Positions 1 through 3,000 of a DNA stretch of 64,000 bases are shown here, piece after piece. The position numbers are program-made. This DNA comes from Escherichia coli. Its GTDB lineage: Bacteria > Pseudomonadota > Gammaproteobacteria > Enterobacterales > Enterobacteriaceae. Within the stretch, counting starts at the first letter, position 1. Every line of letters begins with the position of its first letter. The stretch lies in NCBI RefSeq assembly GCF_003334335.1, contig NZ_QOWQ01000001.1. One strand, 5' to 3'.

Positions 1-3000
1 CATTAACTCTTCTGCTCGCTGGTATATTTTCGTGCGGCACATGCCAGGCGACAGGGGCAGAAGTGACGAGTGAATCTGTATTTAACATTCTTAATTCCAC
101 GGGGGCAGCAACAGATAAAAGTTATTTATCGTTAAATCCAGATAAGTATCCTAATTATCGTCTTCTGATTCACTCAGCCAAATTACAAAATGAAATAAAG
201 AGCCACTATACCAAAGACGAAATTCAAGGATTGCTAACATTAACAGAAAACACACGAAAGTTAACGTTGACGGAGAAACCCTGGGGAACGTTTATTCTTG
301 CTTCTACTTTCGAAGATGACAAAACAGCGGCAGAAACCCACTATGATGCTGTCTGGTTGAGGGATAGTTTATGGGGCTATATGGCATTAGTATCAGATCA
401 GGGAAATAGTGTAGCCGCAAAAAAGGTTCTGCTCACCCTGTGGGATTATATGTCTACGCCCGACCAGATTAAGCGGATGCAGGACGTCATTAGCAACCCA
501 AAACGACTGGATGGAATTCCCGTGCAAATGAATGCTGTGCATATCCGATTTGACAGCAACTCCCCCGTGATGGCAGATGTGCAGGAAGAAGGCAAGCCGC
601 AGCTGTGGAACCATAAACAAAATGATGCTTTAGGTCTTTACCTTGATCTCCTTATACAAGCAATCAACACTGGTACTATTAACGCTGAAGATTGGCAAAA
701 AGGTGACCGATTAAAGTCGGTTGCGCTGCTGATTGCTTATCTGGATAAAGCCAATTTCTATGTTATGGAAGATTCCTGAGCATGGGAAGAAGATGCCCGA
801 TTAAACACATCTTCCGTTGCACTGGTGACCTCTGGACTGGAACGTTTGTCAAACCTACTCTCGAAGAAAGACTCTGTTTTTGTCTCTGATTTACTACGCG
901 AAGCTAAAGTCAATGAACTGGATGAAACTCTTTCAACAACGAGGTTGAACCACCTCATAGATAAAGGTTATGAAAGAATAACGTTACAGCTTGATTTAGG
1001 GGGAGAATCCCCAGGTTATCTGGAAAAAGATAAACATTACAGAGAAGCCGATGCGGCTTTACTTAATGTTATTTATCCTACAAATCTTTCAAAGATAAAC
1101 ACCAGAAGAAAAGAGCAAGTTCTAAAAATAGTTAAAAAACTAGCAGGTCCGTATGGTATAAAAAGATACGAGAAGGATAATTATCAGTCGGCAAATTTTT
1201 GGTTCAATGATATTAAAACCGATACCGATCAAAATTCGCATGCAAAAAGAGAAAAGAGCTTCATTCCATCAACAGAAGCAGAATGGTTTTTTGACTCATG
1301 GTATGCAAAATCAGCAGCAATTGTTTATAAAGAATCAAGAAAAGAAGAGTATTTGAATGACTCAGTACAATTTATGAATAGATCATTGGCCCAAATAACA
1401 GGCGAGAATATGATTGGTGCAAATGGCAGGAGCGTACCAGAAATGGCACTTCCCGAAAGCTATAACTATATCCACAAGTCGGGAACTTTGCATGAAGCGC
1501 CAAGCCCTATCATTCCGCTAAATTGGTCGAAAGCTTCAATGACTCTCATGTTGAAAGAGATGTCCAACCTTATCAATGATGAGGGAATTAAATAGTTTTC
1601 ATAATGAGTTACAGCACAACGTTGGGTATTGACTGAGCAAGATGAACGACAAGGACAACGACATCAGCCTTATGAGGAGCAAGAAAATGAAAGCAAATTC
1701 GAAAACGATCAGAAGGATGAAAGTTAATGTTCGGTCTGAGGAAAGTAAATCGAAACACTCATACGTTTGAAACCACTTTTCAAAATTGGAAAGAAAATGG
1801 CGAAGATGTTGCATTATTAATGCCCGAATTTAGTGCTAAATGGCTACCGATAGCAGAAGAGAGTGGCAGCTGGTCTGGATGGGTATTGCTTGGAGAAATA
1901 TTTCCCTTAATTTCATCTGAGCTCGCTGGGATGGCTTTAATGCCAGAAACGGAAAGGTTAATAGGGGAATGCCTCAGTTTATCCAGTTCCCCGTTAAATC
2001 TAAAGCATCCTGAACTAAAATATAATCGTTTGCGCGTAGGTAAAGTATTTGATGGAGTATTGAGCCCTGCTCAACCACTAATAAGAATATGGACAGGGGA
2101 ATTGAATCTTTGGTTAGATAAAGTCACAGTCTGCCAATACGGAAACGCTCCAGCGTTAGACAAAAAATCGTTATATTGCTCCATTCATTTTGTAATTGGA
2201 TTTAGTAAAACATGTTACAGAAGTCTTGTTGATATTGAAGTTGGTGATGTTTTATTAATCTCAAATAATTTGGCTTATGCGGTTATTTATAATACAAAAA
2301 TTTGTGATTTAATTTATCCAGAGGAGTTAAAAATGGCTGATCATTTTGAGTACGAGGAAGATTTTGAAACAGATGATTTTGATATCAAAAAAAACGAGAG
2401 TGAGATTTATGATGAAAATGACGATCAGATGATTAATAGTTTTGAAGACTTGCCTGTAAAAATTGAGTTTGTTCTTGGTAAGAAAATAATGAATCTATAT
2501 GAAATAGACGAACTCTGTGCAAAAAGAATAATATCTCTGCTTTCTGAATCTGAGAAAAATATAGAAATACGTGTAAATGGCGCGCTAACTGGCTATGGCG
2601 AACTTGTTGAAGTGGATGATAAATTGGGCGTAGAGATTCATTCTTGGTTATCAGGGCATAATAATGTCAAATAGCATTTCGCTGATAGCTATACTATCAT
2701 TATTTACACTATTGCCGTTTATAATAGCATCCGGGACATATTTTATTAAATTCTCGATTGTTTTTGTTATTGTCCGAAACGCGCTGGGGCTTCAGCAAGT
2801 GCCATCAAATATGACACTTAATGGGGTTGCTTTGCTATTGTCAATGTTTGTAATGATGCCGGTTGGGAAGGAAATATATTATAACAGTCAGAATGAGAAT
2901 CTTTCATTCAATAATGTAGCGTCGGTTGTTAATTTTGTTGAGACAGGCATGAGTGGTTATAAATCATATTTGATAAAATATTCCGAACCGGAGTTGGTTA

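Follow-up and report, generated by a model that had tools for sequence, protein, structure and literature searches.

The stretch of DNA analyzed here (the window; 64,000 nucleotides of Escherichia coli, RefSeq assembly GCF_003334335.1, contig NZ_QOWQ01000001.1) begins within ygeQ. The gene comes immediately after actS (ygeR) and the tRNA-Gly gene glyU, with an eivJ remnant, epaO, epaP, epaQ, epaR, and epaS on its other side. It stands at one border of the ETT2 type III secretion island, between glyU and the ETT2 genes. The annotated ATG of ygeQ, taken from a genome that matches window positions 1-1700 with 100% identity, is 16 nucleotides upstream of window position 1, and the ygeQ frame reads from window position 3 as LTLLLAGIFSCGTCQATGAE. 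Translation of 3-1598 demonstrates that this frame is open over 3-1595 with a TGA at 777-779 as the sole internal stop and the natural stop at 1593-1595. The motif WLRDS (354-368) precedes the internal stop and AWEED (780-794) follows it directly. A first-pass annotation of the sequence had described one in-frame TGA that splits ORFs 63-779 and 825-1595, with conserved motifs on both sides, and the translation and the ORF list, in which the two ORFs share one frame, bear this out. The GTG codons at 63 and 825 are mechanical ORF-finder starts, the one at 63 being an artefact of the window edge; neither is a gene start because the frame is open from position 3 and the true ATG is upstream of the window. 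The features of the locus are as follows.

1-776, + strand: 5' part of ygeQ, from the end of codon 6 to codon 264, with a signal-peptide-like N-terminus and WLRDS; RefSeq WP_000676919.1, "ygeQ: protein YgeQ", 264 aa
777-779, + strand: premature opal stop TGA in place of GGA (Gly265), after a G-to-T transversion at 777; the intact alleles compared all have G at 777
780-1595, + strand: untranslated 3' part of the ancestral ygeQ, codons 266-536 and the natural stop, collinear with the intact 536-aa WP_000676929.1
783-791, + strand: W267-E268-E269 motif, invariant in the homologue alignment, inside the 3' part of ygeQ
825-1595, + strand: RefSeq "hypothetical protein", the downstream 256-aa ORF of ygeQ
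1080, + strand: second change of the TGA haplotype, G-to-A (Ala366Thr), 3' of the stop; A is found only in the window and K-12-type alleles
1455-1457, + strand: Glu491, invariant in the homologue alignment, inside the 3' part of ygeQ

The first 19 kb of the window have a G+C content of 35%, as against 52% in the core genes further on. ETT2 has been described as a low-G+C island adjoining glyU (PMC3977695), and the 35% G+C found beside glyU in the window agrees with that description. Strain LR-71-1 matches the window over 49 kb with 99.9% identity, except for an IS1 element that is absent from the window.

The ancestral state of the stop codon was determined by comparison with other alleles of ygeQ. 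Between the intact allele WP_000676929.1 (536 aa) and the window there are 26 differences in 1700 positions, one of them at position 777, where the intact allele has G. In an alignment of seven alleles, T at 777 is present only in the window and the K-12-type alleles, and all five of the others (ATCC 8739, O145 RM11626, MLI023K2, STEC309, and O157:H7) have G. As would be expected of a nonsense pseudogene, the orthologues outside the TGA haplotype thus carry a sense codon, GGA, and since GGA (Gly265) is the codon of the intact alleles the stop arose by a G-to-T transversion at window position 777. The same alignment, which covers ~1.6 kb, contains a single further position specific to the TGA haplotype, the G-to-A change at 1080 that replaces Ala366 with Thr. 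Comparing codon 777-779 among orthologues had been proposed in the first-pass annotation, and the result supports one interrupted gene.

The distribution of the two alleles was examined in 5,426 complete E. coli genomes. A megablast search with window positions 1-1700 found matches in 3,992 of them, always on the chromosome. Where the identity is at least 99% the region is annotated as "ygeQ: protein YgeQ" plus "hypothetical protein", and where it is ~98-98.5% a single "glycoside hydrolase family 15 protein" is annotated. The exact 61-mer centred on the stop and carrying TGA is present in 945 of the 3466 complete genomes that hold the region, including K-12 J53 and O16:H48 strains; these are assemblies, many of them near-identical K-12 laboratory derivatives, and the independent lineages are fewer. 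All of the TGA genomes sampled are annotated with "protein YgeQ". The corresponding GGA 61-mer is found exactly in 1656 genomes, and the remainder, as sampled, combine G with one or two other SNPs and bear the annotation GH15 family protein. An exact 71-mer with 1080A occurs in 946 genomes. About 354 genomes match this 71-mer only in part, and the sampled partial matches that carry the window allele end at 1121, which is the truncation point of the K-12-type genomes. The counts for 777T (945) and 1080A (946) indicate that the two derived changes move together as one haplotype, and the near-equal counts of these linked SNPs suggest a single origin of the TGA mutation, in a lineage to which K-12 belongs.

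The allele in the window is like ygeQ of E. coli K-12 (b2863), which has the same 264-aa WP_000676919.1, the same TGA, and the same site next to glyU and actS (ygeR). The window and the K-12-type ygeQ are 100% identical over window positions 1-1121. Unlike the K-12-type genomes, in which the last ~470 bp of ygeQ and part of ETT2 have been lost, the window retains the complete 3' half of the gene. The 92-aa "hypothetical protein" that adjoins ygeQ in K-12 is probably ygeP, judging by the gene order. The mutation is older than the split of this strain from K-12 and older than the IS2-associated deletion of K-12. The earlier description of the change as "very recent" therefore holds when age is counted in substitutions, with one further change in 1.6 kb, but not in the sense of a strain-specific event, as the stop predates the split from K-12. 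Intact ygeQ (WP_000676929.1; WP_000676921.1 in ATCC 8739; EC042_3075 in EAEC 042) has the same locus and frame length and is 98-99% identical in nucleotide sequence, and it differs from the window in having GGA (Gly265), Ala366, and a product of 536 aa.

A search of a protein collection with the intact allele retrieved 252 homologues, from organisms that include Escherichia albertii (76% identity), Yersinia enterocolitica (57-60%), Commensalibacter, Bifidobacterium, Elusimicrobiota, and Bdellovibrionales. Nearly all of the full-length homologues are about 500-560 aa long, and each is one polypeptide whose alignment runs unbroken through the site of the stop. Conservation was evaluated in an alignment of 33 homologues with 37-76% identity to the E. 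coli protein. Gly265 is located two residues before W267-E268-E269, and all four residues are invariant (33/33). Approximately 45 of the 72 invariant columns fall after residue 265, including W267, E268, E269, and E491. Position 366 is Ala in 31 of the 33 homologues and Ser in the other two. Not one of the 33 stops at position 264 or carries Cys at position 265. The first-pass annotation had named orthologues that all end at this position, with unrelated sequence downstream, as the observation that would point to two genuine genes; this was not what was found, as the homologues continue across the break and conserved motifs lie 3' of it, again as expected of an interrupted gene.

The family to which intact YgeQ belongs was assessed by sequence profiles and by structure prediction. 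Pfam PF00723 (Glyco_hydro_15) gives a weak match to residues 94-401 of the intact allele (i-Evalue 2.2e-4, 20.7 bits), and a precomputed match to the same model is present in many YgeQ homologues and absent from many. NCBIfam gives nothing meaningful for intact YgeQ, the oligosaccharide amylase model TIGR01577 scoring 15 bits against a cut-off of 821. A YgeQ family profile searched against all PDB sequences found only the GH15-like domains of the phosphorylase kinase (PhK) alpha and beta subunits (E-values of 7e-7 and 8e-5); canonical GH15 enzymes were not found in this search even at E-values up to 10. The AlphaFold2 model of the intact allele has a pLDDT of 90.2 and a pTM of 0.90. The best Foldseek matches of this model are PhK alpha and beta (E about 1e-10, TM 0.51-0.54), followed by the GH15 isomaltose glucohydrolase, glucoamylases, and glucodextranase (TM 0.45-0.50), with a probability of 1.00 for PhK alpha/beta and the GH15 enzymes alike; weaker matches are to other (alpha/alpha)6 enzymes from GH125, GH100, and GH37. 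Two hallmarks of GH15 are thus found in YgeQ, an (alpha/alpha)6 barrel, from the predicted structure and Foldseek, and a Trp-Glu-Glu motif, W267-E268-E269. The general acid of GH15 enzymes comes from the Trp-Glu-Glu motif and is Glu179 in the Aspergillus glucoamylase. The proposed equivalence of the YgeQ motif to the general acid is drawn from the motif itself and the Pfam-aligned region, and Glu491, which is invariant and lies in P-E-S-Y, is the candidate general base from the alignment.

The closest structural comparison is with the GH15-like N-terminal domains of PhK alpha and beta (PDB 8jfk, 8jfl, and 8z5r). The motifs W-x-RD, G-x-WE, and YG-x-xR(F/Y)-x-xD-x-Y align between the two groups, including the glycine that is mutated in the window; the aligned PhK motif, "dfGiWE", retains the equivalent of Gly265. 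Sequence identity is about 17-18%. The PhK subunits are eukaryotic regulatory proteins of 1000-1200 aa, unlike YgeQ, which is bacterial, has 536 aa, and carries a signal peptide; YgeQ also retains the second Glu of the WEE motif where PhK alpha has WER. The GH15 glucoamylases 1ayx, 1gah, and 3eqa, the isomaltose glucohydrolase 5z3a, and the glucodextranase 1ug9 share with YgeQ the (alpha/alpha)6 fold and the WxRD and WEE motifs, but YgeQ is only 11-16% identical to these canonical enzymes. The label "GH15-like" in the first-pass annotation is therefore correct at the level of fold and motif, with the qualification that the nearest solved relatives by sequence are PhK alpha and beta and not microbial glucoamylases.

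Residues 1-24 of YgeQ are hydrophobic, and the model shows them as a disordered segment of low pLDDT. Many of the homologues have signal-peptide-like N-termini, and some of these carry a lipobox-like L-x-x-C. Taken with the predicted fold, these features suggest that intact YgeQ is most likely an exported glycosidase of the GH15/PhK-like group. The link between the YgeQ family and PhK alpha/beta had already been reported by Pallen (2003), as cited in PMC2808357. In that account EC042_3075 is located at one end of ETT2, has homology to glucoamylase, and is tentatively put forward as an ETT2 effector (PMC2808357, citing Pallen 2003). An effector role would be less attractive given the N-terminus, which resembles a Sec-type signal peptide. 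In the literature searched, ygeQ otherwise appears by name in gene lists only, and a 2024 review of ETT2 does not mention it.

The AlphaFold2 model was also used to examine the effect of the truncation. The stop falls in a loop between helices 242-255 and 275-292, and residues 1-264 retain about five helices of the barrel. The motifs that are lost 3' of the stop are W267-E268-E269, GGESP, YGIKRY..DNYQSANFWF, EAEWFFDSWY, PESY, and the C-terminal PLNW, which together hold most of the invariant columns of the 33-homologue alignment. It is most likely that the truncated protein, which would lack roughly half of the barrel and all of the conserved C-terminal motifs, is inactive.

The first-pass annotation had offered a nonsense mutation, a sequencing error, or a read-through site as explanations for the TGA. 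The nonsense mutation is retained, given the GGA of the intact alleles; the other two give way to the 945 genomes that share the stop and to the lack of any recoding signal. It is very unlikely, though conceivable, that the TGA allele keeps some function, either in the form of a small amount of full-length exported enzyme made through a leaky UGA, with Trp at position 265, or in the form of a 264-aa N-terminal fragment, conserved and bearing the signal peptide, that is functional itself. Residual function of either kind would account for the open downstream frame of this strain. Apart from A366T that frame (271 codons) is fully open, which suggests a mutation that is young in substitutions and would also be compatible with some residual selection. 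Among the few TGA genomes that were inspected, the N-terminal 264-aa fragment shows 100% identity. This is expected for so young an allele and does not prove the fragment useless.

A programmed recoding event, in which UGA would encode selenocysteine or would be read through efficiently and the full-length enzyme would still be made, is highly improbable. UGA is the leakiest stop codon of E. coli, and the release factor 2 of K-12 is a weak variant; these general properties, together with the 271 open downstream codons that contain one lineage-specific substitution only, are what speak for recoding. Against it, no hairpin beyond that of shuffled sequences follows the UGA. The 70 nucleotides from the UGA (777-846) fold with an MFE of -13.6 kcal/mol, compared with a mean of -14.8 kcal/mol for dinucleotide shuffles (z = 0.41), and in 121 of 200 shuffles the fold is as stable or more so. 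A search of window positions 1-2000 against Rfam gave no relevant match at E-values up to 10. The stop is therefore without a SECIS-like structure, as the first-pass annotation had anticipated, and without a recoding signal, as expected of a nonsense pseudogene. The ancestral residue is a universally conserved Gly and is never Cys or Sec, in keeping with the earlier view that selenocysteine is unlikely here; between the folding, Rfam, and Gly in 33/33 homologues, the selenoprotein reading was rejected. Near-cognate read-through would place Trp at the invariant Gly beside the catalytic motif. Additionally, K-12-type genomes and other strains with the TGA allele no longer have the part of the gene beyond the stop, and the TGA haplotype has a replacement of a conserved Ala in that part.

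It is similarly improbable that the locus holds two genuine genes, with the 264-aa YgeQ and the 256-aa product of 825-1595 expressed separately, whether as independent proteins or as a split enzyme that reassembles. RefSeq does have coding sequences for both pieces, "protein YgeQ" and "hypothetical protein", and the N-terminal piece retains its own start and signal peptide. The homologues outside the TGA haplotype are nevertheless all single chains across the break, and the break falls inside a single predicted (alpha/alpha)6 barrel domain; homologue architecture and the single-domain fold led to the rejection of two genes. The 20 nucleotides before GTG 825 contain no visible purine-rich Shine-Dalgarno sequence, which also argues against separate expression. 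Translation from 825 would yield a product with neither the signal peptide nor the WEE motif (783-791), and without a signal peptide this product could not meet the exported N-terminal half. The downstream piece is, moreover, deleted or interrupted in many genomes with the TGA allele. A sequencing or assembly error, with a true codon of GGA and a miscalled T at 777, has a negligible probability even though a single-base difference alone separates the two ORFs, as 945 complete genomes that were sequenced independently, K-12 among them, have the identical TGA 61-mer, 777T is linked to the second haplotype SNP at 1080 (946 exact matches), and RefSeq consistently annotates the 264-aa WP_000676919.1 in TGA genomes, and the exact 61-mer counts across the 5,426 complete genomes exclude it.

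By these comparisons the stop in ygeQ is a true nonsense mutation shared by a whole lineage, in which the GGA codon of Gly265 has become TGA and ygeQ a pseudogene. Window positions 1-1595 are very probably the K-12-type pseudogene allele of ygeQ, nonsense-mutated and part of the attrition of ETT2. The ancestral gene would have encoded a 536-aa protein with a signal peptide and a GH15/phosphorylase-kinase-alpha/beta-like (alpha/alpha)6 barrel. A single G-to-T transversion then converted the GGA codon of the invariant Gly265 to TGA, with translation predicted to stop after residue 264, two residues short of Trp-Glu-Glu. The mutation would have arisen once, in a lineage that includes K-12, and would have been inherited by many strains. 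The 3' half of ygeQ would subsequently have drifted and been struck by IS elements and deletions, as part of the general mutational attrition of ETT2.

Several events in the TGA lineage fall 3' of the stop. K-12-type strains have an IS2 element and a deletion from position 1122, directly after window position 1121. Strain ECO12 has an IS421 element in the 3' half of ygeQ, and strain PigCaeca_2 has an IS3 element and a deletion after position 871; both carry the TGA allele. The A366T replacement, at a site conserved in at least 90% of the homologues, and the IS and deletion events are signs of relaxed constraint and later decay 3' of the stop in the TGA lineage; as the events are few, they are a suggestion of this and not a statistical result. 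Damage to ygeQ is found in other lineages as well. O157:H7 inactivated the gene independently: its ygeQ lacks 5 bp (a 5-bp deletion corresponding to window positions 543-547) and is annotated as frameshifted. Some strains with the GGA allele have IS2 or IS3 insertions in ygeQ.

The neighbouring ETT2 genes in the window are likewise damaged. In addition to the eivJ remnant, epaO and epaS are frameshifted, ygeK has an internal stop, and a lytic transglycosylase gene is broken. The ETT2 of most strains is damaged by frameshifts, stop codons, deletions, and inserted IS elements (Ren et al. 2004 as cited in PMC2808357; PMC3977695), and this "widespread mutational attrition" (Ren et al. 2004, J Bacteriol 186:3547, as cited in PMC2808357) has been reviewed (PMC3977695). 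The ygeQ allele in the window is one more pseudogene of the island that was created by a point mutation, and its nonsense mutation is routine ETT2 gene decay.

The dead allele of ygeQ is already known and annotated, and it is the same as that in E. coli K-12. The comparison made here explains the 264-aa "protein YgeQ" and the "hypothetical protein" in K-12-like annotations as the two halves of one dead gene, and it adds one more documented case of decay of the ETT2 island. A by-product that is mildly useful is the placement of intact YgeQ in a widespread family of signal-peptide-bearing bacterial proteins, whose closest solved relatives are the GH15-like domains of PhK alpha and beta.

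[quoted passage not shown] The microbial glucoamylases all rank behind these two subunits, whether the comparison is made with the profile of the YgeQ homologue alignment (A1) or with the predicted model of the intact protein (m82787451080d). The family is widespread, with members in Yersinia, Commensalibacter, Bifidobacterium, Elusimicrobiota and Bdellovibrionales, and the N-termini in alignment A1 are mostly signal-peptide-like or lipoprotein-like. To our knowledge, no member has been characterised.

The ygeQ gene of O157:H7 FRIK2069 (L007 2485-4090, in the locus from that strain) carries a 5-bp deletion, equivalent to window 543-547, that results in a frameshift, and its codon 265 is still GGA. 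The inactivation of ygeQ in O157:H7 is independent of that in the window. In the O145 and O157:H7 loci (L005 and L007) ygeQ is followed by a GhoT/OrtT-family toxin gene, a helix-turn-helix gene and sctC, whereas in the window it is followed by a remnant of eivJ. This difference in gene order downstream of ygeQ accounts for the match of these genomes being limited to window 1-1608. The two features that follow ygeQ in the window are:

1608-1727, remnant (120 nt) of the needle-length gene eivJ, directly after ygeQ
1687-2674, epaO (YscQ family), frameshifted, next after the eivJ remnant

The eivJICAEGF block of the complete ETT2 seems to have been deleted in this region (1608-2674). Strain LR-71-1 is identical to the window over both features, which are marked as pseudogenes in that strain by RefSeq. 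An IS1A insertion in the ygeF region (window about 14870-14880) is present in LR-71-1 and absent from the window; apart from this element the two sequences are 99.9% identical across 49 kb. LR-71-1 is also identical to the window over positions 1-1700, and upstream of ygeQ it has a gene for a site-specific integrase along with two hypothetical genes (positions 1-2540 of its locus, L001, before the window start); in other strains the genes at this distance are actS and tRNA-Gly. This arrangement suggests that an extra island is inserted at glyU in LR-71-1. The window, which begins downstream of the stretch concerned, may or may not share the insertion.

Other ETT2 genes in the window are also damaged:

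4377-5497, epaS (EscU/YscU family export switch), frameshift-split into ORFs 4377-5108 and 5105-5497 in different frames
about 10594-11227, ygeK (LuxR-type), shortened to a 148-aa ORF
about 11245-11748, lytic transglycosylase gene, frameshifted according to the annotation of a near-identical strain

Judged from these three lesions, the ETT2 island of the window is non-functional at several places.
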